From a virus, in the IMG/VR virus record IMGVR_UViG_3300027852_000026, positions 1 to 39,007 of that record: 39,007 bases of DNA. One strand, 5' to 3'. The translations under genes were made by a program, and so were the position numbers. Within the stretch, counting starts at the first letter, position 1, and every line of letters begins with the position of its first letter. The notes below the pieces were generated by a model. That model saw only the letters and a list, made by a program, of their open reading frames with translations. It was not told the DNA's origin and made no database searches. Below are positions 13,057 to 39,007 of this stretch, in pieces.

Positions 13057-13418
13057 TGGCGCAAAAACTACAAGCGGCCAACAGCCCAGCAGGCGGGCAC
13101 CCCGACACCGCGCCCGACAACACTATTCAGCGCAACACGGCTGCCATTGGCAAATTAGTTTTTACCGTTAACGAACACAAAGCCGCCATGGCCGATATGG
13201 CCAAAGAAATTAGCCAGCAAATGCAGGCGATGGCCGAGCACCGCAAAATAATTGACGCTCACTTTGCAGAAACCCAGCGCAGTGCCGACACCGTGGCTGA
13301 GCTGGTGCTTGAAATGCGCGCCTTGAATTTAGCAATACCCGCATTAATTGACGCGGTGGGCGAGCATGTGCCGGCGCTGGTAGAAAACACCAAGGCAATA
13401 AAGGGTTTTCGCTTGTAA
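13056..13418 (+). CDS. hypothetical helical / coiled-coil protein
   Basis: 120 aa, with TAATG coupling at both ends. Confidence 0.6.
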   Translation: MAQKLQAANSPAGGHPDTAPDNTIQRNTAAIGKLVFTVNEHKAAMADMAKEISQQMQAMAEHRKIIDAHFAETQRSADTVAELVLEMRALNLAIPALIDAVGEHVPALVENTKAIKGFRL

Positions 13419-14692
13419 TGCCCGAAAACATCGCCTCGCGCATCGCCAAACTGGCCGCTATTGCACCAGAGCCGCTGAGCGAGGCGCAGGCCATTGCAGC
13501 GCGTCGCCTATACTCAACCCTAGCCCAGCTTGAGTATATTGCTGTGCTGGCCGCTGAGCGAGGCGATTGTGTTGACGGCCAGCTCGAGGATGAGCTGGTA
13601 CACCGTGGCGTATTTATTCAGCTTGCTCAGCAGCTCGGCGGCGTGTGTGTGGTTAGCCCGGAAACCCGTGAGCTGGTTGCCAAGCTAGAAGCAATGCGCG
13701 GGCCGCAGTCGTTGTTGTTGTTAAATATTGTTGCAGAAACATGGCTCGAAACTGTTTTTGATGAGCTCGCAAAGCCCGGTTGGGGCAGTGAATTATTTGC
13801 GGCCGTTGAAGCCGACGAAGCCCGTCATGTTGCCGGTGCCTGGGCCGCTGAAATACCCGATGCCGCGGCCATGCGCGATGACCTGGCAGACATTGAAAAA
13901 GCCCTGGCAAATATAGGTTTGTCGACAGGTTTTATTTTACCGCTGCGCCACCTTCGCGGTGCAGCGTTTTGCGGCAACATGGGCCTTGCGGCTATTGCTA
14001 GTCATGAAAAAGTTTGCGCCCGCCTTGGTGTTGCGCCGGGGCGAGTTATTGGTAAATTAAAAGCCTTTAGCCGTGGCATTAAAATGCTGCCGATGCCCGA
14101 TGTTATTAAACCAACGCCGGGGCGGCTGTCGTTAATGCGGGCATCGCCTGTGCCGTTTGTAATGGACTCTATTATTAGCGTGCCCAACCGCTTCGCGCTG
14201 CCCTTGGCCGCCGTGGTAAAAGCCGCCAGCCAAACACTGCACGACCACTCCGAGCTGCGCCGGGCAATGCGTGGCGATGTGCTGTACCAGCACAGCGAAG
14301 CCACCGTTTATGTGCGGGTAAAAATGCCCACCGGCATTATGTCGGTAAGCCTGCGTGCTGCCTGGCAACACACCCCGCGAGAAATTTACCGGCAAATAAA
14401 AAAACAACGGGCAAGGCTGGCCCGGCGCAAGCACTACCCACTGCCCCCGCTGGGTGACATGGAGCCACTGCTACCGCCAGCGCAAGCCGCACTGGCAGTG
14501 ACCGATATATCACGCTGGGGTTTTGACAATGGCACCACCCCGCTTGTGCCGGCAGAAGGCGTACCAATTGTCATAACGCTGGGTATAATAACAGTGGATA
14601 AAATCACAGTATCCTTTTCAATGGACCACCGTGTTTTTGATGCCTCAGACATGGGCCTGCTGCGGGATAGTTTGCTTGATCATTTAGGGTAA
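13418..14692 (+). CDS. two-domain protein: N-terminal ferritin-like di-iron domain fused to a C-terminal 2-oxoacid-dehydrogenase (E2) / CAT-like acyltransferase domain
   Basis: 424 aa. Two E...ExxH pairs are present (LEY..EDELVH at residues ~39-62 and ETWLETVFDE..EADEARH at ~107-137). The C-terminus is collinear with the E2 catalytic domain and ends in SFSMDHRVFDASDMGLL, a variant of the DHRxxDG motif. Confidence 0.55.
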   Translation: MPENIASRIAKLAAIAPEPLSEAQAIAARRLYSTLAQLEYIAVLAAERGDCVDGQLEDELVHRGVFIQLAQQLGGVCVVSPETRELVAKLEAMRGPQSLLLLNIVAETWLETVFDELAKPGWGSELFAAVEADEARHVAGAWAAEIPDAAAMRDDLADIEKALANIGLSTGFILPLRHLRGAAFCGNMGLAAIASHEKVCARLGVAPGRVIGKLKAFSRGIKMLPMPDVIKPTPGRLSLMRASPVPFVMDSIISVPNRFALPLAAVVKAASQTLHDHSELRRAMRGDVLYQHSEATVYVRVKMPTGIMSVSLRAAWQHTPREIYRQIKKQRARLARRKHYPLPPLGDMEPLLPPAQAALAVTDISRWGFDNGTTPLVPAEGVPIVITLGIITVDKITVSFSMDHRVFDASDMGLLRDSLLDHLG

Positions 14693-14740: not shown

Positions 14741-14992
14741 ATGCGCGGCTACGCCGTTGCGGGTGACCCTGCAATTCCGTTGGTTGATGAGGGCCGAGAA
14801 TACTGCGCAGTGGCAACCATCACTATTGCCGGACACGTTGCCATAGCCACGCTAACTAAAGGTGATTTAAAAGGCTGGCAACTGTGGGCAGATATTGACG
14901 CAGCCCTGCGGGCAAAAGGTGTTACAGAGCTGCATTGGCAGCGACATAAAAATGGAAAAGTTTTAAACAAAAAAAGGCGAATTAAATCATGA
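14741..14992 (+). CDS. hypothetical protein
   Basis: 83 aa. GAGGGG lies 8 nt upstream of the ATG, and the stop overlaps the next ATG (ATGA). Confidence 0.55.
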   Translation: MRGYAVAGDPAIPLVDEGREYCAVATITIAGHVAIATLTKGDLKGWQLWADIDAALRAKGVTELHWQRHKNGKVLNKKRRIKS

Positions 14993-15489
14993 TTAAAAAT
15001 ATTCTTTTATCTGTTTTGTTATTGGTTAGCTTTGGCGCGTTTGCTGAGTTCGACCAAACTAACCCGGCACATTTGCTGACTCTAAAGACAGAGGTTAACG
15101 ACGACCCGATTGGCATGGGGTATAGCGAGGTTGTTAACGTAACCTCTCGACTGCTAGCGATGCTCAACGAGCCAGAACAAAACGTGGGTGGTGAAAACAC
15201 GAGCATTGAACTAACGGTTGACGCACTATTTGATGCTGTTGACCCTGCTGATTTAGACGGGCCGCAAGTGAGCCAGGGTGAGCGTGATTTGCTTCTGTCG
15301 CTGATGGCACGAGATTTAAGTCTTAGCCTTGAGCACAGGCGCGCACAGATACGCGACTGGTTTCGCACTAACTCAACTACTGTGGATAACCTTGACGCGA
15401 TGGTGCGACTACTGTCGAGAGCAGAAGTGTTATTCGGGGCAGGCACTGTAATTAGCAAGGCAGACTGGCTAGCAGCGAGGGACAGCTAA
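14989..15489 (+). CDS. secreted protein with a Sec signal peptide, function unknown
   Basis: 166 aa. The N-terminus MIKNILLSVLLLVSFGAFA/EF has n-, h- and AxA-type c-regions. This is the first gene of an AT-richer block. Confidence 0.7.
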   Translation: MIKNILLSVLLLVSFGAFAEFDQTNPAHLLTLKTEVNDDPIGMGYSEVVNVTSRLLAMLNEPEQNVGGENTSIELTVDALFDAVDPADLDGPQVSQGERDLLLSLMARDLSLSLEHRRAQIRDWFRTNSTTVDNLDAMVRLLSRAEVLFGAGTVISKADWLAARDS

Positions 15490-23312: not shown

Positions 23313-23633
23313 CTATTTGTGATGCCACCAAATACGAAAGCGATTAACAACGTACCAAATCAGGCCTGCGGTAGTGAATAACGCAGGCATGGCGGATGGC
23401 TCACTTTGTGGGTTGCTTGCCAGGACGAATACCCAGGTAAGGCCAATAATGATTACCGATACAGAGATTAGTGTGTGAAGCTTGAACTTTTTGCTTGTCT
23501 CCTGAATGGTCTTAACTTGGGTGCCTGCCGCAACAGTCTCACGGGCTTCCGCTATTGGGGCGCCACACTTCGGGCAAGCCTCAGCCTTATCTGAAGCCTG
23601 GTGATTACATTCACTGCAATTTATTAATGCCAT
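23313..23633 (-). CDS. zinc-ribbon membrane protein (N-terminal CxxC...CxxC, two TM helices)
   Basis: 106 aa with CSECNHQASDKAEACPKCG, then the hydrophobic stretches LISVSVIIIGLTWVFVL and ALFTTAGLIWYVV. A strong SD (AGGAGA) lies 6 nt upstream of the ATG. Confidence 0.75.
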   Translation of the reverse strand: MALINCSECNHQASDKAEACPKCGAPIAEARETVAAGTQVKTIQETSKKFKLHTLISVSVIIIGLTWVFVLASNPQSEPSAMPALFTTAGLIWYVVNRFRIWWHHK

Positions 23634-26123: not shown

Positions 26124-26282
26124 ATGACTGATCAGGAAATATTAAAGCATTTTGGTGAAACGTGTTGTTTTGTGGCTGAAAGAGGTCGGCCACTAATGTT
26201 GGATGCAGTATTTCTTGAGCTGCTTGCACGCGCAGGCATAAAGAACGTTAACAATAAAAAACAGGGAGCAAGTCATGAGTAA
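26124..26282 (+). CDS. possible small protein (52 aa)
   Basis: ATG at 26124, with an 8-nt overlap onto the next gene. There is no clear SD. The longer track version would overlap the KTSC gene. Confidence 0.35.
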   Translation: MTDQEILKHFGETCCFVAERGRPLMLDAVFLELLARAGIKNVNNKKQGASHE

Positions 26283-26736
26283 GTTTGCAACAAATAACGG
26301 CCATTCACCTTTCTACCGGCGCATTGGTTATTTGCTGGTGCTGTTGTCGGCACTGGTGATGTGGTTGGTTATTACAGTTGGCTTTGGTGTTGCGCTGGTG
26401 TATTCGAACCGGGCGCAGGCGCTTGAGGCTGATTATGCCGACCCCTGGTGTGCGGCGCAGGGTGGTGTGGCTGAGAAGGCGCTGGCTGACCGCACGCGGG
26501 TTGACTGCTTGCTGCCGGGCTTTGCGGTTGAGGTTGATTACGCGCACAAGTGGGCGGAGGCGATGGGGCAGGCTTTGCATTATGGCCGTATGACTGACCG
26601 TATGCCGGGTGTGATGTTGATTTTAAAAAAGCCGGCTGATGCGCGTTATGTGCGTCGGTTAAATGCCGATGCCGAGCACTGGGGTTTGCCGTTGTTTGTT
26701 TGGACGGTGAAGGCTTATGCGCCGGGGCAAGAATAA
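26275..26736 (+). CDS. membrane-anchored protein; the C-terminal domain has a D...ExD...K pattern faintly reminiscent of PD-(D/E)xK nucleases
   Basis: 153 aa with the N-terminal TM helix IGYLLVLLSALVMWLVITVGFGVALV, followed by VDCLLPGFAVEVDYAHKWAEAMGQALHY. Confidence 0.6.
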   Translation: MSKFATNNGHSPFYRRIGYLLVLLSALVMWLVITVGFGVALVYSNRAQALEADYADPWCAAQGGVAEKALADRTRVDCLLPGFAVEVDYAHKWAEAMGQALHYGRMTDRMPGVMLILKKPADARYVRRLNADAEHWGLPLFVWTVKAYAPGQE

Positions 26737-31663: not shown

Positions 31664-31849
31664 ATGAGCGATGAGTTACGCCCTCGGCATTATGCGGCGG
31701 CGTGTTGTGCGTTGCCGGGGCGGGTTGAGCGGCGGGCGTATTTGGCAGAGGTGGTGCCGGCGCATTTGAGGGATTGGGTGCGTTTGTATGTTGAGCTTGA
31801 GTTTGAGCGCAAGGAAAAGAAGAAAAAGCAAGAGCAGAGGGATTGGTGA
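31664..31849 (+). CDS. hypothetical protein
   Basis: 61 aa. GGGGAG lies 7 nt upstream of ATG 31664. Confidence 0.55.
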   Translation: MSDELRPRHYAAACCALPGRVERRAYLAEVVPAHLRDWVRLYVELEFERKEKKKKQEQRDW

Positions 31850-32091
31850 TGGGGCAGACAAGGTTAAGCTCATTGATAGAGGCTGGGTTCAATATCGTCA
31901 TTGGCTATGTGGTGGCGCTGATATCGCAGCTGGTGATTTTCCCTGCGGTTGGGATTGATATTCCGTTAAGCACCAATTTGGTCATCGGTGCGTGGTTTAC
32001 GGTGATTAGCCTGGTGAGGAGTTATGTTATTCGCCGCTGGTTTAATGCTCGGTTGCATGCTGCGGCTTTGGCGCTGTCGAAAAATGCTTGA
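31849..32091 (+). CDS. small membrane protein (two TM helices)
   Basis: 80 aa from ATG 31849, which overlaps the upstream stop (TGATG). Hydrophobic stretches are IVIGYVVALISQLVIFPAV and LVIGAWFTVISLV. Confidence 0.6.
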   Translation: MGQTRLSSLIEAGFNIVIGYVVALISQLVIFPAVGIDIPLSTNLVIGAWFTVISLVRSYVIRRWFNARLHAAALALSKNA

Positions 32092-32248
32092 TCCTATTCA
32101 GTTAATTTTGGCCATTGTCGATGCAATTGTTCGCTTGTCGATAGCAGCTAAAAGAGAGGCGCGGTGCCACGTTAAAACCGTGAGTCTAGAGGGTAAAAGA
32201 GCCTTTCCGCCCGCTGTTTGGCGGGCAATACCTGTGCCGGATGTTTAG
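32084..32248 (+). CDS. small hypothetical protein
   Basis: 54 aa. ATG 32084 overlaps the end of the upstream gene. Confidence 0.4.
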   Translation: MLDPIQLILAIVDAIVRLSIAAKREARCHVKTVSLEGKRAFPPAVWRAIPVPDV

Positions 32249-32313
32249 CCAGGGTAACGTGGGTTTGTGTTCGTTGTGGCTGGTGTGTGGTGATCAATAA
32301 GTGGGGCGGTGCA

Positions 32314-32880
32314 ATGATTTTACGGTCGGCAAGGCAGGCGTGGGCGGTGGTGTTTGAGGGGTTGCGGGCACAGGGTTGGGGTGTTGGTGGTGGTAGTGGC
32401 GGTGGGTGCAATACGGCGGATTATCGCATTTGGGATGGTTTGACGGCGGGGCAGGTGATGACGGTTATCGATGATCTGCCGGAGCAGTGTTACACGTGGG
32501 GCATGTGGGCTTATACGGAGCCCCGCGAGAATGATGTTAACAAGCAGGCTGAGCGTGAGTTGTTTTTGCTGACGTGGCTGGCCAAGGCGCTGGATGCTGC
32601 GGGCGTGCCGGATGTGCGCAGCGATGAGGAGGGCGAGGCTGAGCAGCAGTTGCTGTTGATGCTGTTGCGCGATACTCGTCAGCGTGAGCGCAATGGCCGT
32701 GAGCTGTACAGCAAGGCGGATATGGCGCGGGCGCTGGGTGTTGACCGGCGTTGTCTTGATGCGCGGTATAAGTGGGGCCGGCGTTGTGTTGTGGCGCGAC
32801 AGGCGTTGGATGATTTGATTGGCGGTGCGCTGGGGCCGGTGGCGCGGGTGGTGGGTGAGATTAATGTGCGGGCGGCTTGA
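32314..32880 (+). CDS. candidate late-gene regulator (antiterminator Q-like by position)
   Basis: 188 aa from ATG 32314. CYTWGMWAYTE recalls the WG.W motif of some Q families. It lies just upstream of a promoter-plus-terminator unit and the lysis/late genes. Confidence 0.35.
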   Translation: MILRSARQAWAVVFEGLRAQGWGVGGGSGGGCNTADYRIWDGLTAGQVMTVIDDLPEQCYTWGMWAYTEPRENDVNKQAERELFLLTWLAKALDAAGVPDVRSDEEGEAEQQLLLMLLRDTRQRERNGRELYSKADMARALGVDRRCLDARYKWGRRCVVARQALDDLIGGALGPVARVVGEINVRAA

Positions 32881-33200: not shown

Positions 33201-33240
33201 CAGTGCGTTAACAGGAATTAAAAAAGAAAGAAAACAGCAC

Positions 33241-33270
33241 TTGACGGAATACGACACTTTGCCCTAGTAT
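33241..33270 (+). promoter_or_regulatory. candidate late promoter (PR' analogue)
   Basis: TTGACG (33241-33246)-N18-TAGTAT (33265-33270), the same hexamers and spacing as the rightward immunity promoter. An A-rich tract (33219-33236) lies upstream. Confidence 0.6.
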
Positions 33271-33325
33271 TCCCCATGCTGGCGCTGATTCCATTAAATA
33301 TGTGATTCGTGCCATTTTTATATCA

Positions 33326-33351
33326 AAAGCCCGCTTCTTGCGGGTTTTTTT
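33326..33351 (+). terminator. rho-independent terminator ~55-80 nt downstream of the late promoter (tR' analogue)
   Basis: Stem GCCCGC (33329-33334) / GCGGGT (33340-33345), loop TTCTT, then a T7 run to 33351. The stem can be extended by A:T pairs. Confidence 0.8.
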
Positions 33352-33366
33352 ATGCCCGGAGTTTAT

Positions 33367-33909
33367 ATGTTAGGACACAGTGATGCGGTGGTCGAGAGTT
33401 GGCTGGTGCGGATTGTTGGGCATGAGGGTGGGTTTTCTGATGACAGGCTTGATCCGGGTAATTGGACGGGCGGTGTTATTGGTCAGGGCTCGCTGAAGGG
33501 TACGAAGTTTGGCATTAGCGCGAGAAGCTACCCGGATTTGGATATTGCGGGCCTTGTGTTGCCTGACGCGGTGGCTATTTATCAGCGTGATTATGTGCGC
33601 CCGTTGAAGTTGGGCCAGTATCGTGACGGCGTGGCGTTTCAGTTGTTGGATTTTGCGGTTAATGCGGGGCCTGATCGGGCTATTCGTCGTTTGCAGCGAG
33701 CTGTTGGTGTTGGTACTGATGGTGTTGTTGGGCCGCTAACATTGGCGGCACTTGAGGCGCGCAGTGAGGGTGATGTGATTATGTTGCTGGTGGCTGAGCG
33801 CATTGAGTTTTTGACGTATTTACGCAATTGGCCGGATGCTGGCAAGGGCTGGATGCGGCGGATGGCTGATAATTTACGGTTTGGTGTTGTGGATGTTAGT
33901 AATCAATGA
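33367..33909 (+). CDS. endolysin, GH108 muramidase with a PG_binding_3-like C-terminal domain
   Basis: HEGGFSDDRLDPGNWTGG...KFGIS matches the GH108 EGG....DPGG.T..GI motif, and VGTDGVVGPLTLAAL matches the PG-binding region. The start is set at ATG 33367, with GGAG 5 nt upstream. Confidence 0.85.
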   Translation: MLGHSDAVVESWLVRIVGHEGGFSDDRLDPGNWTGGVIGQGSLKGTKFGISARSYPDLDIAGLVLPDAVAIYQRDYVRPLKLGQYRDGVAFQLLDFAVNAGPDRAIRRLQRAVGVGTDGVVGPLTLAALEARSEGDVIMLLVAERIEFLTYLRNWPDAGKGWMRRMADNLRFGVVDVSNQ

Positions 33910-34169
33910 GCCATTCGGATCATGTTGACCGTGTTGGCGAGGTTGGTCTGGCAATGGCTGGTCATAAGGTTACGGCAGCGGGTGGCGGTTTGGCGATTAG
34001 TAGTGGTGCCGTCGGCTGGTTGGCTGAGAATCATTTGCTGTTGTCGAGCTTCGGTATTTTGGTGGGCATTTTGGTGGGCCTGTATGGGCTTGTGCTGCAG
34101 CGTCGGCGTGATAAGCGGGAGCAGATTGAGCATGTTGCGAGAATGGAGAGTATTACAGGGGGCGAGTAA
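33906..34169 (+). CDS. holin (two TM helices, charged C-terminal tail)
   Basis: 87 aa with VTAAGGGLAISSGAVGWL and LLLSSFGILVGILVGLYGLVL, then QRRRDKREQIEH. It is ATGA-coupled to the endolysin. Confidence 0.7.
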   Translation: MSHSDHVDRVGEVGLAMAGHKVTAAGGGLAISSGAVGWLAENHLLLSSFGILVGILVGLYGLVLQRRRDKREQIEHVARMESITGGE

Positions 34170-34174
34170 GTTGC

Positions 34175-34849
34175 ATGGTTAGCAGGCAGGTGGACGTAGT
34201 TATTGATGTGATAGATAAATCCGCTGGTAGTAGGCTTGTTCGTAAGCCCTTGGCCATTCTGGTGCATGGGTTTAACGTGTGGGACGGTGGACGTGCGACG
34301 GTGGGTAAGTTGCGACCGTTTCTATCGGCTGAATGCGTGCCTTATATCATGATTAATTATGGTCATGTGGGGCTGCTTGGTACGCGGTTAAAGAATAAGA
34401 AGATTGCTTTGCGTGTCGCTGAGGCGGTGTGCACGGCTGTTGATGCTGGGTATAAGCCGGTGGTGATTGGGCATTCAAATGGGTGCGCGATTATTCATTT
34501 GGCGATGAATATGGTTGATTCTGTGTGCCCTGGTGCGGTTGATGTTGTTTATATCAATCCTGCGTTGAAGAAGGATGCGCGGGCCTCTGCTGCTGTTAAT
34601 AATCTGGCAGTGTGGCACAGCCCGAGTGATAAGCCTGTGCGGTGGAGTAAGCGGCTGTTGCCGTCGAGTGCCCGCCCTTGGGGTGAGATGGGCGCAACTG
34701 GGTTTGTTGGCCACGATAAGCGGGTGATGAACTACAACAAAGAATTGATGACGCCGCCCAGTAAAAGCCATTCAGATATGTTCAGTGCTGAGCTGCTGCC
34801 GTTTTACGGCCCGCTAGTGGTGGATGGTGTGGCGTTGGGTGGTGGGTAA
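34175..34849 (+). CDS. alpha/beta-hydrolase fold serine esterase/lipase-like protein
   Basis: 224 aa. ILVHGF is an HG oxyanion motif, VIGHSNGC is a GxSxG nucleophile elbow, and the candidate Asp and His lie in WHSPSDKPV and SKSHSDMF. There is no signal peptide. Confidence 0.7.
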   Translation: MVSRQVDVVIDVIDKSAGSRLVRKPLAILVHGFNVWDGGRATVGKLRPFLSAECVPYIMINYGHVGLLGTRLKNKKIALRVAEAVCTAVDAGYKPVVIGHSNGCAIIHLAMNMVDSVCPGAVDVVYINPALKKDARASAAVNNLAVWHSPSDKPVRWSKRLLPSSARPWGEMGATGFVGHDKRVMNYNKELMTPPSKSHSDMFSAELLPFYGPLVVDGVALGGG

Positions 34850-35192
34850 GGCACGCAAGTGGTGTTCTAAGTGTAAAGAGCCGCATGCAGGGCAGTGCCC
34901 GAAAAGTGGTTGGAAAGGTTACAGGCATAAGCAAGGGTCTTCTGGCCGTGGTGGCACGACTTGGCAGAATAGGCGCAAGCGAATTTTTGAGCGTGACGGC
35001 TATCTATGCCAAGAGCATAAGCGCTTAGGTAAGCTCGTGTCGGTATCACTTCATGGGATAAATCACGGGGTTTGTGATCACATAACTCCGCTTGCAGAAG
35101 GTGGCAGCGACGATGATGAGAACCTTCAAACGATCTGTCAGTCCTGCGATAAGACAAAAACAGCACAAGAAGCGCGCAGGGGTAGGGGGTAG
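34824..35192 (+). CDS. HNH endonuclease associated with the terminase
   Basis: 122 aa with CQEH...GVCDHITPLAEGGSDDDENLQTICQSCDKTKT. It lies immediately upstream of terS/terL as in HK97-like cos phages. The start is ambiguous among ATG 34824 and GTG 34839/34842. Confidence 0.85.
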   Translation: MVWRWVVGKARKWCSKCKEPHAGQCPKSGWKGYRHKQGSSGRGGTTWQNRRKRIFERDGYLCQEHKRLGKLVSVSLHGINHGVCDHITPLAEGGSDDDENLQTICQSCDKTKTAQEARRGRG

Positions 35193-35297: not shown

Positions 35298-35753
35298 ATG
35301 AGCAAACCATTAGCCGCAGTGATCCCACTGGGGTTAGCGGTGACGAACAAAGACAAGGCGCCAGCCAGTGAGACTGCCGCCGATTTATTCCAGGGCCTGA
35401 AAGCGAAGATACCGCCGGTGCCTGGTTCAATATCCGACGAGGCCCGCAAGCACTGGTACTACATCGGCGAGCGGCTGGTCGGCCTGAATCTGCTGGCCGA
35501 AGTCGACCTCGGCCAGTTTCGCATCATGTGTGAAACTTGGGCGCTTTATGTCGAGGCCCAGCGCAAAGTAGAAGAAGAGGGCGAATACCAATCCACGCCC
35601 AACAACTACATGCAGCTTTCACCCTGGGCAGTGGCCCGCGAGCGCCACGCCAATCGATACCAGAAAATTGCCGACAAGTTTTTCCTCAGCCCACGGGCGC
35701 GAAAAGCTATCACTATTGAAAACCCCAACCAGGGCGGCCTTGATCTCGACTAA
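35298..35753 (+). CDS. terS: terminase small subunit, P27 family
   Basis: 151 aa. HWYYIGERLVGLNLLAEVDLGQFRIMCETWALYVEAQRKVEEEG...LSPRARKAI is typical of the P27 family. Confidence 0.85.
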   Translation: MSKPLAAVIPLGLAVTNKDKAPASETAADLFQGLKAKIPPVPGSISDEARKHWYYIGERLVGLNLLAEVDLGQFRIMCETWALYVEAQRKVEEEGEYQSTPNNYMQLSPWAVARERHANRYQKIADKFFLSPRARKAITIENPNQGGLDLD

Positions 35754-37432
35754 TGAGTGCCCCCGACGTCGGCAGAGCGTGGCTAGACCGCGCCTATCAA
35801 TATGCCGACGACGTAAAAAGCGGCGTAATACCCAGCTGTAAATACATACAGCTCGCCGTTGATCGCTGGTTCGACGACATGAACAACGCCCCCGCCAGGG
35901 GCCTGCAGTTCAGCGAATACCACGCCGCTCGATACTTTCGCTTTGTGGGCCGCCACTGCCGTCACTACGAAGGCGAATGGGCTGGCAAGAAAATAGACTT
36001 CGAGCCCTGGCAATGCTTCGCCGACGCCAACCTATTTGGCTGGATACGTGAAGACGGCACCCGCCGCTTTCGCCAGGCCTACGAAGAAGTCGCCCGCAAA
36101 AACGGCAAATCCACACGCATCGCCGCCGCTGGCAACTTCTACCTTATTGGCGACAACGAGCCCGGCGCGCAAATTTACAGCGCAGCCACAAAGAAAGAAC
36201 AAGCCCGGCTAATATTTGAATCCAGCAAAGCAATGCTTGAGCAAAGCCCAGCGCTAGCCAGCCTCTGCACAATTGAAGAACACAAACTCAAATACCAGCG
36301 CAGCAAATACCTCCCGCTGAGTAAAGACAGCAAACGCATGGACGGCTTCAACGTTCATGCCGGGCTGGTCGACGAACTCCACGCCCACCCAAATTCAGGG
36401 CTATGGGACGTCATGCGCAGCGCCATGGGTGCCCGCAAGCAACCCGTAATGCGCGCCATAACCACAGCAGGCTTCGACCACAACAGCTACTGCTACCAGC
36501 GCCGTCGCTACGCCATACAAGTACTCGAAGGCGCTGTCACAGACGACGCATTCTTCACCACAATTTACACCCTCGACGACCCTGAGAAATGGGACGACCC
36601 CGCCGAGTGGCCCAAAGCAAACCCCAATTTAGGCGTATCCGTATCGCTCACCGACCTACAAGAGCAATGCGAAGAAGCCAAGCACCTACCCAGTGCTAAA
36701 ACAGAATTCCTCACCAAGCGCCTTAACCTATGGGTCTACGGTGAAACCGCCTGGATGCCAATGCAACACTGGCACCAATGCAAAGACCCTAGCCTTAACA
36801 ACTGGGACGACGCCACCGAGCTCGACGGCCAAGAATGCTACGGCGGCCTAGACCTGTCAGCAGTCGAAGACATGACCACCTTTGGTCTCGTCTTCCCCGG
36901 TGAAAACGGCCAGCGCACAACACTATCGCGGTCCTATTTACCGCAAGCAGCCCTAGAACGCAGGCTGAAACAAGGCGATAAAACGCTAGAAACATTCCGC
37001 GACAGCGGCAACCTAATCGTACTGCCCGGCCAAACCGTCGACTACAACTTCATTAAAGCCGACATTATGGCCGCCGCTGAACGGTTCGACCTGCAATCGA
37101 TTGCCTTCGACCGCTGGAACAGCAGCCAACTCGTTAGCGACCTTATCGACGAAGGCATCGGCTTCATCGAATTCGGCCAGGGCTACGGCAGCATGAGCGC
37201 CCCCAGCAAAGAACTGCTGCGCCTCGTGCTAAACCAACAACTGCGCCAAAACGACCCACTACTCACCTGGGCCGTTAGCAACGTTGTCGTGCAAACCGAC
37301 CCCGCCGGCAACATAAAGCCCGACAAAGGCAAAGTATCAGAAAAAATCGACCCCGCAGTCGCCCTCATTATGGGCATAGCGCTGGCCATGGCGACAGACG
37401 AAGCTGAATCCCCTGAGATTTTTATTCTATGA
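35753..37432 (+). CDS. terL: terminase large subunit (Terminase_1 family)
   Basis: 559 aa. ARKNGKST is Walker A-like, VDELH is Walker B-like, and a C-terminal nuclease region is present. The stop of terS abuts its ATG (TAATG). Confidence 0.93.
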   Translation: MSAPDVGRAWLDRAYQYADDVKSGVIPSCKYIQLAVDRWFDDMNNAPARGLQFSEYHAARYFRFVGRHCRHYEGEWAGKKIDFEPWQCFADANLFGWIREDGTRRFRQAYEEVARKNGKSTRIAAAGNFYLIGDNEPGAQIYSAATKKEQARLIFESSKAMLEQSPALASLCTIEEHKLKYQRSKYLPLSKDSKRMDGFNVHAGLVDELHAHPNSGLWDVMRSAMGARKQPVMRAITTAGFDHNSYCYQRRRYAIQVLEGAVTDDAFFTTIYTLDDPEKWDDPAEWPKANPNLGVSVSLTDLQEQCEEAKHLPSAKTEFLTKRLNLWVYGETAWMPMQHWHQCKDPSLNNWDDATELDGQECYGGLDLSAVEDMTTFGLVFPGENGQRTTLSRSYLPQAALERRLKQGDKTLETFRDSGNLIVLPGQTVDYNFIKADIMAAAERFDLQSIAFDRWNSSQLVSDLIDEGIGFIEFGQGYGSMSAPSKELLRLVLNQQLRQNDPLLTWAVSNVVVQTDPAGNIKPDKGKVSEKIDPAVALIMGIALAMATDEAESPEIFIL

Positions 37433-37581
37433 AACAATCAATTTTCGACGCCGTTGGTATTTTCGGCATCGGCTTTATTGCCTATGGCTCGTGGCTTATT
37501 TACAAGCCCGCCGGCTTTATCGTTGGCGGCTTATTACTGATTGGCGTTGCATTTATAGCTAGTCGCGGTCCAATCGCCTGA
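37429..37581 (+). CDS. small two-TM membrane protein (50 aa), absent from the track
   Basis: ATG 37429 overlaps the terL stop (ATGA). The frame is open to TGA at 37579-37581, which overlaps the portal ATG. Translated as MKQSIFDAVGIFGIGFIAYGSWLIYKPAGFIVGGLLLIGVAFIASRGPIA. Confidence 0.55.
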   Translation: MKQSIFDAVGIFGIGFIAYGSWLIYKPAGFIVGGLLLIGVAFIASRGPIA

Positions 37582-38810
37582 TGATTTTTGACCGCTTGCA
37601 AAAAAGCACAACTATTAGCACCTCTGCAGAGCTTGCAGAAGCGCTTGGTGTTGGTTACCAATCCAGCGCTGGCGTCTCTGTTACACCAAAAGAGGCCGTC
37701 CGTTTTGCCCCGGTGTACAGCTGCATAAAAGTGCTGGCCGAATCAGTCGGCATGCTGCCTTTAAACCTGTTTGAGCAGAAAGGCAGAGTGCGTGAAAAAG
37801 CGCGTAGTCATAGCCTGTTTAACTTAATAAACCTTGCCCCAAACAGCTACATGACCAGTCAGGAATGGCGCGAGACCATGGTCGCCCACCTGGGCCTTCG
37901 GGGTAACCACTACTCGTGGATCAATCGCATAAATGGCCAGGTGCGCGAACTGCTGCCGCTAAACCCTGACGCAGTTACCCCTGCCATAAATAGCGACTGG
38001 TCAGTCGATTATAAAGTCACCTTCCCTGATGGCACCCAGCGAACATTGGGCGAAGACCAGATATTTCATGTCCGCCTTATGTCCGTGGACGGCCTCACGG
38101 GTTTAAGCCCTATCGCCCAGGCGCGCAATAGCATCGGCTTAGGCATGGCCGCTGAGCGCTTTGGTTCACGGTTGTTTAAAAACGGCACTCGCCCCAGTGG
38201 CTTGCTGAGTACAGATGCAAAGCTCAGCGCTGAGCAAATGGAGCTTATGTCCAGCTCGTGGCGCAAGGCAAATAGCGGTGACGACGAACTGCGCACCGCA
38301 ATTCTAGGTGGCGGCCTTAAATGGACAGCGATATCGATATCGCCAGAAGACGCGCAGTTTCTTGAAACGCGCAAATACCAGCGCAGCGAAATAGCCGGCA
38401 TCTTTCGTGTTCCCGCGCACATGATCAACGACATGGAAAAGGCCACCTTTTCTAATATTGAACACCAAGACATTGCCTTCGTTGTTCACACGCTCACGCC
38501 CTGGGTGACTCGCTTCGAGCAGCGCATAGCGGTCAGCTTATTGACGGCGCAAGAGCGTGAAAAGTTTTTTGCCAAATTCAACGTCAACGCCCTATTGCGT
38601 GGCGACATGAAATCCCGCGCCGACTACATGTGGAAGCGCTTTCAAATGGGCTCGCTGTCGCCTAATGACATTCGCGACTTTGAAGACGAAAACCCAATCG
38701 ATAACGGCGACACCTACTGGGTGCCAGCCAACATGATAGACCCTAAAGACAACACCGAAATGCAACAAACCGGCGACCAAAACAGCAGCACAGGTGACGA
38801 CAATGCTTAA
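37581..38810 (+). CDS. portal protein, HK97 family
   Basis: 409 aa. VYSCIKVLAESVGMLPLNLF and the SPEDAQFLETRKYQRSEIAGIFRVP region are typical. It lies between terL and the protease. Confidence 0.92.
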   Translation: MIFDRLQKSTTISTSAELAEALGVGYQSSAGVSVTPKEAVRFAPVYSCIKVLAESVGMLPLNLFEQKGRVREKARSHSLFNLINLAPNSYMTSQEWRETMVAHLGLRGNHYSWINRINGQVRELLPLNPDAVTPAINSDWSVDYKVTFPDGTQRTLGEDQIFHVRLMSVDGLTGLSPIAQARNSIGLGMAAERFGSRLFKNGTRPSGLLSTDAKLSAEQMELMSSSWRKANSGDDELRTAILGGGLKWTAISISPEDAQFLETRKYQRSEIAGIFRVPAHMINDMEKATFSNIEHQDIAFVVHTLTPWVTRFEQRIAVSLLTAQEREKFFAKFNVNALLRGDMKSRADYMWKRFQMGSLSPNDIRDFEDENPIDNGDTYWVPANMIDPKDNTEMQQTGDQNSSTGDDNA

Positions 38811-39007
38811 GCAAAAACTCCACGCGCCACTTCGCATCAAAGAAGTCAGCAATAGCGGTGAATTCTCAGGCTACGGCTCAGTCTTCGGCACCACCGACAG
38901 CTATGGTGACGTTGTTGTTAAAGGCGCGTTCACTCAGTCGCTGGCTGACTGGGCCGGCAAGGGGCGCATGCCATCGCTGTTATGGCAGCACGACACCAAA
39001 GAGCCTA
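38803..39007 (+). CDS. HK97-family prohead protease, 5' portion (continues at 1..594)
   Basis: ATG 38803 overlaps the end of the portal gene. MLKQKLHAPLRIKEVSNSGEFSGYGSVFG... runs off the window in the same frame that is open from base 1. Confidence 0.9.
   Translation, partial: MLKQKLHAPLRIKEVSNSGEFSGYGSVFGTTDSYGDVVVKGAFTQSLADWAGKGRMPSLLWQHDTKEP
38881..39007. repeat. exact 127-bp copy of bases 1-127 (circular-closure overlap)
   Basis: Identical base for base by direct comparison of the first and last lines of the window. Confidence 0.98.

Follow-up and report, generated by a model that had tools for sequence, protein, structure and literature searches.

What does an esterase do in the lysis cassette of a phage that seems to have no spanin? 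This question is raised by a 39,007-nt stretch of viral DNA (IMG/VR record IMGVR_UViG_3300027852_000026), which was analyzed at its full length, is called the window throughout, and stems from a temperate phage of marine Gammaproteobacteria. Lysis of Gram-negative bacteria is understood to proceed in three steps, which are performed by holin, endolysin, and spanin. In a preliminary description of the window it was noticed that genes for a GH108 endolysin and a holin are followed, in the slot where a spanin would be expected, by the gene for a 224-aa alpha/beta hydrolase, and an enzymatic route of outer-membrane disruption was proposed. The only spanin alternative that has been described is the disruptin peptide. 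Searches of open-access literature yielded no esterase, lipase, or alpha/beta hydrolase described as part of a lysis cassette in phages of Gram-negative hosts, and no enzymatic third or fourth lysis function for phages of hosts bearing lipopolysaccharide (LPS). The results presented here indicate that the protein is a catalytically intact serine hydrolase and that its gene belongs to the lysis module. We consider it plausible, while stopping just short of calling it probable, that the enzyme is an accessory esterase of the envelope, which is released by the holin, aids lysis or virion release, and resembles the mycobacteriophage esterase LysB in function but belongs to a different family. It is probably not a simple replacement of a spanin.

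The catalytic elements that had been recognized earlier, i.e., an HG oxyanion motif, a GHSNG nucleophile elbow, and candidate Asp (SPSDKP) and His (SHSDMF) residues, are all present and were found to be conserved in an alignment of 51 homologues. No substitution was seen at H100, S101, and G103 of the elbow (residues 99–103), at D152 (SPSDKPV), or at H199 (HSD), while H31-G32 are kept in at least 90% of the sequences. The alignment also contains the family-specific motifs NVWDGG, NPAL (128–131), and PWGEMG (168–173). In an AlphaFold2 model (pLDDT 89.4, pTM 0.85), beta5 is followed by Ser, beta7 by Asp, and beta8 by His, which is the canonical order of alpha/beta hydrolases. The elbow is formed by a strand (93–100) and a helix (102–113), and Asp and His follow strands 141–148 and 184–188. 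Triad conservation and the model are thus in agreement with the serine esterase or lipase fold that had been proposed, and the protein is predicted to be a catalytically intact serine alpha/beta hydrolase. The sole Pfam match was a marginal one to PF12697 (Abhydrolase_6; 27.5 bits, gathering threshold 26.3).

Foldseek assigned a probability of 1.00 to many alpha/beta hydrolases, and the best matches in the PDB were the minimal lid-less lipases Bacillus LipA and Lip_vut1, lysophospholipases, acyl-protein thioesterases, and YdeN/YqiA esterases. The family I.4 lipases (B. subtilis and B. pumilus LipA; 1i6w, 7r1k) and the lysophospholipase/acyl-protein thioesterases (6bje, 6qgq), which are the closest in structure, share with the hydrolase a compact single domain of about 180–220 residues without a lid, the HG oxyanion motif, and the Ser-Asp-His triad. 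In contrast, the pentapeptide of the hydrolase is GHSNG instead of AHSMG, and these structural neighbors lack NVWDGG, NPAL, and PWGEMG. Furthermore, LipA is secreted, whereas the absence of a signal peptide from the hydrolase was confirmed by a sequence scan. A lipobox or a transmembrane domain (TMD) was not found either, and the same was true for almost all relatives examined. When longer family members were scanned for fusions or export signals, none were detected except for one protein with C-terminal TMDs. The hydrolase is basic, with a pI of 9.5 and a net charge of +9, and the family has a median pI of 9.1, with 70% of its members above 8.5.

The genomic neighborhood then allowed the hydrolase gene to be assigned to a functional module. 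Open reading frame (ORF) calls returned endolysin, holin, and hydrolase genes in the claimed order on the plus strand, followed by genes for an HNH endonuclease and both terminase subunits (Table 1). The genes are tightly packed: the holin start and the endolysin stop overlap by 4 bp, 5 nt separate the holin stop from the hydrolase start, and the 3′ end of the hydrolase gene shares 26 nt with the HNH gene. The boundary of the module was indicated by the related locus L090, the homology of which to the window is confined to a Q-like ORF (32422–32880) and to a block from 33220 to 34870. This block comprises promoter, leader, GH108, holin, and hydrolase and ends at the hydrolase stop codon. The downstream genes are unrelated, and the HNH gene is not present 3′ of the hydrolase gene in L090. 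This boundary shows that the hydrolase travels with the lysis genes and not with the packaging genes. The same trio of GH108, holin, and hydrolase was also found in L001 and in L002/L003/L008/L089, and the carriers of the trio include Porticoccaceae prophages. Both the L090 boundary and the recurrence of the trio support the earlier assignment to the lysis cassette, and judged from gene order and homology, the lysis module has three genes and closes with that of the hydrolase.

The module is preceded by a late promoter, as had been claimed. The region 33236–33351 is nearly invariant in L001, L002, and L090, although the proteins are only 70–85% identical, and promoter, leader, and terminator are more conserved than the coding DNA on either side. 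Such a near-invariant non-coding stretch is the hallmark of late control regions of the lambda type, in which promoter, leader, and terminator are subject to an antiterminator, and the layout in the window is similar to pR′/qut/tR′ of lambda. The Q-like ORF upstream, which is 82% identical in L090 and represents the sole homology there upstream of the lysis module, co-varies with the promoter/leader region and may encode the antiterminator. Antitermination presumably takes place at the late leader. An 82-aa DUF7220 protein with two TMDs (31843–32091, plus strand; PF23858, 2e-29) is encoded just 5′ of the Q-like gene, in a position that the late operon does not include.

The distribution of the family was analyzed next to the gene content of the window. 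A word-indexed search yielded 299 relatives of the hydrolase, and an exhaustive search yielded 504 cluster representatives (50% identity) at E <= 1e-3. Nearly all are 185–220 aa long, and the alignments start at residue 24 of the window protein. Close relatives (57–84% identity) include proteins of prophages in metagenome-assembled genomes (MAGs) of Candidatus Reddybacter and of other Porticoccaceae or Gammaproteobacteria. Scanning one genome per GTDB species with two peptide patterns, which samples closer relatives only, revealed 21 loci, all in MAGs, from Gamma- and Alphaproteobacteria, Opitutus, and Lentisphaerae; they include one 3.6-kb contig binned as an archaeon, and no monoderm carrier was among them. 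The hosts of the relatives' prophages are Porticoccaceae, Pseudohongiella, Alteromonadaceae, Rhodospirillaceae, and Opitutus. In IMG/VR, 109 viral contigs carry a relative, whereas only one of 50,697 GenBank phages does, namely Shewanella phage S0112, in which the homologue (S0112_060, annotated as "alpha/beta hydrolase") is encoded 225 nt upstream of a putative endolysin gene and just before the terminase gene. The DNA of the window itself had zero similarity matches among the same GenBank phages. All contexts that were inspected look like phage or prophage. Apparently, the family is carried solely by phages, including integrated ones, whose hosts are diderm and mostly marine, in accordance with the proteobacterial host that had been suspected.

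Before any role at the outer membrane could be considered, it had to be clarified whether the phage has a spanin. The window carries an exact 127-bp direct repeat at its ends (1–127 and 38881–39007), and this repeat, together with the continuity with L002 across the ends, shows that the assembly is circular and complete, with a size of about 38.9 kb. A search of the window therefore also covers a spanin located elsewhere in the genome. The circle is broken inside the prohead protease gene, 3′ of the portal gene (37581–38810). Strict and relaxed lipobox scans of the complete genome, with all start codons and in six frames, did not yield a credible spanin lipoprotein, but only hits at chance level, such as a 39-aa GTG ORF at 23475–23594 that is antisense to leftward early genes. 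As positive controls, separated and embedded spanin-like pairs were detected by the same scanner in L111, L127, and L185. A two-component spanin, i.e., a type II protein with an N-terminal TMD plus a lipoprotein ORF, was not found in the genome, and the hydrolase has no TMD that would allow it to be part of one. A unimolecular spanin with lipobox and C-terminal TMD was not found either; the genome is devoid of a credible lipobox ORF. None of the TMD-bearing ORFs of the window matched a spanin PHROG or had a lipoprotein partner. The earlier statement that an Rz-like protein, a lipobox ORF, and a unimolecular spanin are lacking could thus be extended from the cassette to the whole circle.

Four individual candidates were inspected and rejected. 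An embedded o-spanin within the hydrolase gene (34575–34727, MRGPLLLLIIWQC) has Gln at position −1, which is not a lipobox residue, and its frame is closed or signal-less in L001 and L002. ORF 32024–32248 (MLFAAGLMLGC) has an n/h-region of only 10 residues without a positive charge. As for i-spanins, ORF 14989–15489 encodes a secreted protein with a cleavable signal, and ORF 26275–26736 encodes a type II membrane protein without a coiled coil. The latter (plus strand, 153 aa) opens the rightward early operon. It has a periplasmic D...EVD.A.K motif reminiscent of PD-(D/E)XK nucleases, a weak match to phrog_5928 (unknown function; E = 0.0014), and no Pfam match.

Also considered was disruptin, which is gp28 of the spanin-less phage phiKT. 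Like the hydrolase, this peptide is cationic, but it is small, resembles antimicrobial peptides, and is not an enzyme. Small plus-strand ORFs with a net charge of at least +6 were scanned, and none was free-standing in the late operon; the matches were antisense in the early region or overlapped larger genes. A non-canonical spanin solution in the genome is possible. In summary, the hydrolase is the only candidate for an outer-membrane-directed factor in this spanin-less phage. However, the absence of a spanin is by itself ordinary, because 91 of 677 phages of Gram-negative hosts (13%), many of them marine, also lack one (PMC6139136).

Related GH108 cassettes, which form 12 clusters, were compared for the position of the hydrolase gene. 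Among those without a hydrolase, L111 is the closest; its endolysin is 52% identical to that of the window. In L111, GH108 and a multi-TMD holin are followed by a 144-aa coiled-coil protein that has a TMD at its N-terminus and then by a 98-aa lipoprotein (lipobox LTGC), so that in this single comparison a spanin-like pair fills the exact position of the hydrolase. Spanins such as lambda Rz/Rz1 and T1 gp11 thus occur in the same slot after endolysin and holin and have the same presumed target, the outer membrane. They are, however, not enzymes but membrane-fusion proteins, which carry a lipobox, a TMD at the N-terminus, or both, and the hydrolase has neither of these features. The L111 pair, the complete circular genome without a spanin, the diderm nature of all carrier lineages seen, and the lack of lipobox ORFs near the hydrolase gene in L001, L002, L090, L020, L006, and S0112 would be expected if the hydrolase were a strict substitute that alone performs the third lysis step by enzymatic destruction of the outer membrane or its tethers and is necessary and sufficient for it in this lineage. 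Nevertheless, we regard such a strict substitution as quite unlikely. As the spanin-less phages mentioned above have no such enzyme either, a substitute is not required (PMC6139136), and a second objection comes from the gene neighborhoods of the relatives.

For the analysis of these neighborhoods, 75 loci were dereplicated at a hydrolase identity of 85%, which left 56 clusters, and same-strand ORFs were called. Lipoproteins were searched for with a strict lipobox scan ([ILMFTV][^REKD][GAS]C, a charged n-region, and an uncharged hydrophobic h-region, with all start codons). In the 329 kb of the loci, the scan detected 29 lipobox ORFs on the coding strand compared to 6 on the opposite strand, which served as the control. 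In 19 loci, a lipoprotein gene abuts the hydrolase gene on either side, often with a 4-bp ATGA overlap, and L078 adds a lipoprotein with an ASGC lipobox, resulting in about 20 of 56 loci. A lipoprotein gene is therefore the most consistent neighbor of the hydrolase gene. The hydrolases of the lipoprotein-linked loci are 36–56% identical to the window protein, and the lipoproteins are 48–198 aa long and mostly unrelated to one another. A homologous hydrolase-lipoprotein pair was found among replication genes in L004 (8001–8875) and before the terminase gene in L021 (223–1115), with lipoproteins that are 33% identical and no i-spanin candidate nearby, which suggests a mobile two-gene unit.

In several relatives the neighbors look like spanins. 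In L016, L043, L064, and L078, the gene beside that of the lipoprotein encodes a protein that combines a TMD at its N-terminus with a charged helical region, an arrangement like that of i-spanin and o-spanin, and in L058, L062, and L087, the i-spanin-like and o-spanin-like partners are separated by the hydrolase gene. A PHROG scan of these spanin-like neighbors recognized none of them, and therefore, their identification as spanins is based on topology, gene order, and overlaps. This co-occurrence in seven loci shows that the enzyme is not in general an alternative to spanins. In addition, the GH108 cassettes L096 and L098, found in the GTDB loci, hold both the hydrolase and a lipoprotein, which is also at odds with a strict substitution. 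The proposal of an enzymatic outer-membrane route in the spanin slot is thus upheld by the slot position and by the lack of a spanin in this phage, and it is weakened by the spanin-like pairs that accompany the enzyme elsewhere. A broader version, in which the family is the Gram-negative counterpart of LysB and acts as the sole third-step factor in spanin-less lineages and with a lipoprotein partner in others, also appears unlikely to us.

The other class of neighbors comprises endolysin genes. Nine endolysin PHROG families, as well as holin families, were found among the two upstream neighbors in the 56 loci (phrog_315 and phrog_1768 three times each; phrog_181, 9506, 465, 1519, 894, 317, and 7 once each). 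Within three genes, the Pfam domains GH108 (four times), GH24, GH19, Peptidase_M15_3, and M15_4/VanY (once each) were identified, and TerS was found eight times; the downstream neighbors are mostly terminase or head-tail adaptor genes. In all, at least five types of endolysin accompany the hydrolase. A GH108 muramidase gene directly adjoins the hydrolase gene in at least eight lineages; in L096 and in L006/L007, an SU10-like phage, the hydrolase gene is located directly upstream of it. No signal-arrest-release (SAR) or signal sequence was detected in the endolysins identified beside the hydrolase (GH108 and two M15-like peptidases), which is consistent with their release through large holin holes.

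The proximity to GH108 and the suitable chemistry of an esterase would also fit a peptidoglycan de-O-acetylase that helps the endolysin by stripping off the 6-O-acetyl groups of N-acetylmuramic acid, which block muramidases. Four observations make this role highly improbable. The hydrolase gene is also found beside genes for M15-type peptidases, which are insensitive to O-acetylation (L058 and L062; M15_3, M15_4), and the presence of unrelated endolysin folds including peptidases argues against a muramidase-specific role. Known peptidoglycan O-acetylesterases have an SGNH fold and are not alpha/beta hydrolases. A GDSL/SGNH match was not found in Pfam, and with Abhydrolase_6 as its only match and an alpha/beta-hydrolase fold in the model, the protein does not resemble SGNH/GDSL O-acetylesterases of the Ape type. 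Finally, the lipoprotein gene is a more consistent neighbor than the muramidase gene.

Several results also weigh against an accessory envelope esterase. The association with endolysins is moderate, with about 8 to 13 of 56 loci compared to about 4 expected by chance, and these counts are totals per family and not exact values per locus. Many homologues adjoin non-lysis or other genes, e.g., for a Lar-like protein, replication proteins, or tail fibers: in L004, the hydrolase gene is among replication genes, in L005, it follows tail-fiber-like genes at the prophage end, and in L013, L009, and L017, it is next to genes for Lar-like proteins or for proteins without a known function. The border between lysis and packaging genes is where accessory genes ("morons") are classically inserted, and a signal-less protein could equally act in the cytoplasm. 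Moreover, the matches in the PDB are generic (TM-scores 0.45–0.6, identities 10–16%), no relative was found in PHROG, PADLOC, or the PDB sequences, and NCBIfam gave only a generic match below the threshold, so that homology offers no clue to the substrate. The family appears to be new, i.e., previously undescribed, uncharacterized, and not part of annotated families.

These observations could be explained if the hydrolase were an auxiliary enzyme that does not break the envelope. It could be a cytoplasmic esterase acting on host metabolites or lipids, or an enzyme that is released by lysis and acts outside the cell in clean-up or on receptors or environmental substrates. The NanS-p esterase in the late operon of Shiga toxin (Stx) phages is a comparable accessory case. 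The mixed contexts, the moron hot spot, and the absence of an export signal, which would keep the protein in the cytoplasm before lysis, are in line with this explanation. The staphylococcal-nuclease-like proteins of the L006 and L096 cassettes would also fit a toolkit for release and clean-up. However, family members were found solely in phages or prophages, with strong conservation over very different phage types, which points to a phage-centered role. The translational coupling to lipoprotein and holin genes, the L090 boundary, which places the hydrolase inside the lysis module, and the interleaving with spanin-like genes also argue against it. Taken together, we consider an accessory role of this kind possible but rather doubtful. 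The nuclease-like proteins (L006, 9131–9625; L096, 6420–6926) have an N-terminal TMD or signal and are encoded in cassettes with GH108 and hydrolase; in L096, the gene for a 95-aa lipoprotein overlaps the nuclease gene by one base, which both ends the stop codon of the nuclease and begins the ATG of the lipoprotein. In phages of the L006/L096 type, several degradative enzymes may be bundled with the lysis genes.

The reading as a holin-released envelope esterase is fitted by the fold, the catalytic triad, the lack of an export signal, the module membership, and the linkage to endolysin, holin, and lipoprotein genes in phages of diderm hosts. A close precedent is lysin B (LysB), the mycolyl-arabinogalactan esterase of mycobacteriophages, which shares with the hydrolase a soluble Ser-Asp-His alpha/beta fold, the absence of an export signal, and a place in the lysis cassette beside endolysin and holin. 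According to two reports, LysB is presumed to act after the holin on the outer lipid layer, as an accessory to the holin-endolysin core (PMC5707550, PMC6116114). In contrast to the proposed functional similarity, no sequence kinship was found: a match to PF01083/cutinase or to a LysB Pfam family was absent, and a profile search of PDB sequences with the hydrolase family (best E = 3.5e-4) did not have LysB or cutinase among its matches. LysB was also not among the top 50 PDB fold matches, and a structural search of BFVD retrieved only generic viral alpha/beta hydrolases, with LysB-type actinophage esterases matching weakly (TMq 0.35–0.45). The hydrolase is thus not a member of the LysB family, and the kinship is restricted to the superfamily fold. 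Furthermore, the hosts of LysB phages are mycolata, whereas those of the hydrolase phages are Proteobacteria and other LPS-bearing diderms, and therefore, the substrates must differ.

We hypothesize that the hydrolase builds up in the cytoplasm late in infection, driven by the lambda-like late promoter and leader, and that it would reach the periplasm through the holin lesions together with the signal-less endolysin. It would then cleave an ester of an envelope lipid, which could be an outer-membrane phospholipid, lipid A, or the diacylglyceryl anchor of lipoproteins. The outer membrane would thereby be weakened or cleared, and the virions would be released faster. In this scheme, we infer the late co-expression, the holin-dependent release, the substrate, and the effect on lysis.

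The partners of the hydrolase in the cassette were assigned as well. For the endolysin, a match to the holin-associated muramidase family NF040573 was below the cut-off (4.5e-10), and neither a TMD nor a SAR segment was found at the N-terminus. The ATG at 33367, which had been chosen in the preliminary description, is a likelier start than the opening of the ORF at 33352, because it is preceded by GGAG five bases upstream. The holin matched the class II family PF16082 below the threshold (22 bits versus 30). It had been termed a two-TM holin, which is plausible but not certain: a strong TMD is present at residues 42–66, while the second is a weak, uncharged Gly/Ala-rich stretch at about 21–41.

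Table 1. Coordinates of the late control elements, the lysis genes, and the first packaging genes in the window
Feature	Position	Strand	Basis and remarks
Candidate Q-like late-gene regulator	32218..32880	+	phrog_3373 (unknown function) 4e-6; function from position only
Sigma-70-type late promoter-like site, TTGACG-18-TAGTAT	33241..33270	+	Sequence; invariant in L001, L002, L090
Intrinsic terminator hairpin, GCCCGC-TTCTT-GCGGGT + T7	33329..33351	+	End of conserved leader of ~60 nt; identical in L001, L002
Soluble GH108 N-acetylmuramidase endolysin, PG_binding_3-like C-terminal region, 180 aa (185 aa from 33352)	33367..33909	+	PF05838 2e-14; phrog_315 3e-35
Holin, 87 aa, charged C-terminal tail	33906..34169	+	phrog_4237 holin 1e-8; one strong and one weak TMD
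Alpha/beta-hydrolase serine esterase or lipase, 224 aa	34175..34849	+	Triad S101/D152/H199, oxyanion H31-G32, no lid, no export signal
HNH endonuclease, 122 aa	34824..35192	+	PF01844 2.6e-9; phrog_589, phrog_144; first gene of the packaging module, outside the lysis module
Small terminase subunit (TerS)	35298..35753	+	
Large terminase subunit (TerL)	35753..37432	+	

Two further observations were made outside the lysis module. Between the TerL and portal genes, a 50-aa protein with two TMDs is encoded (37429–37581, plus strand; phrog_502, "membrane protein"), which differs from its counterpart in L002 by a single residue. In the tail/accessory region, a 424-aa ORF (13418–14692, plus strand) has an acyltransferase domain of the 2-oxoacid-dehydrogenase type (CAT-like; PF00198, 26.9 bits, above the cut-off) with a DHRxxD motif and no PHROG match. 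It is followed by ORFs at 14741–14992 and 14989–15489, the latter of which encodes the secreted protein of 166 aa mentioned above (cleavable signal peptide, AFA/EF). The acyltransferase ORF and its secreted neighbor may represent a cargo or conversion module.

An esterase in a lysis cassette is already known from mycobacteriophages; what is new here is the unannotated family, its occurrence in phages of LPS-bearing diderms, and its pairing with lipoprotein genes. As the cultured Shewanella phage S0112 carries a homologue, a role in lysis is open to genetic testing. Should outer-membrane lipids or lipoprotein anchors prove to be its target, the enzyme would be a candidate for combination with endolysins, which it might help to attack Gram-negative bacteria from the outside. 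If the hydrolase turned out to have no effect on lysis, its tight pairing with diverse lipoproteins would still mark an unexplained two-gene module of these phages.

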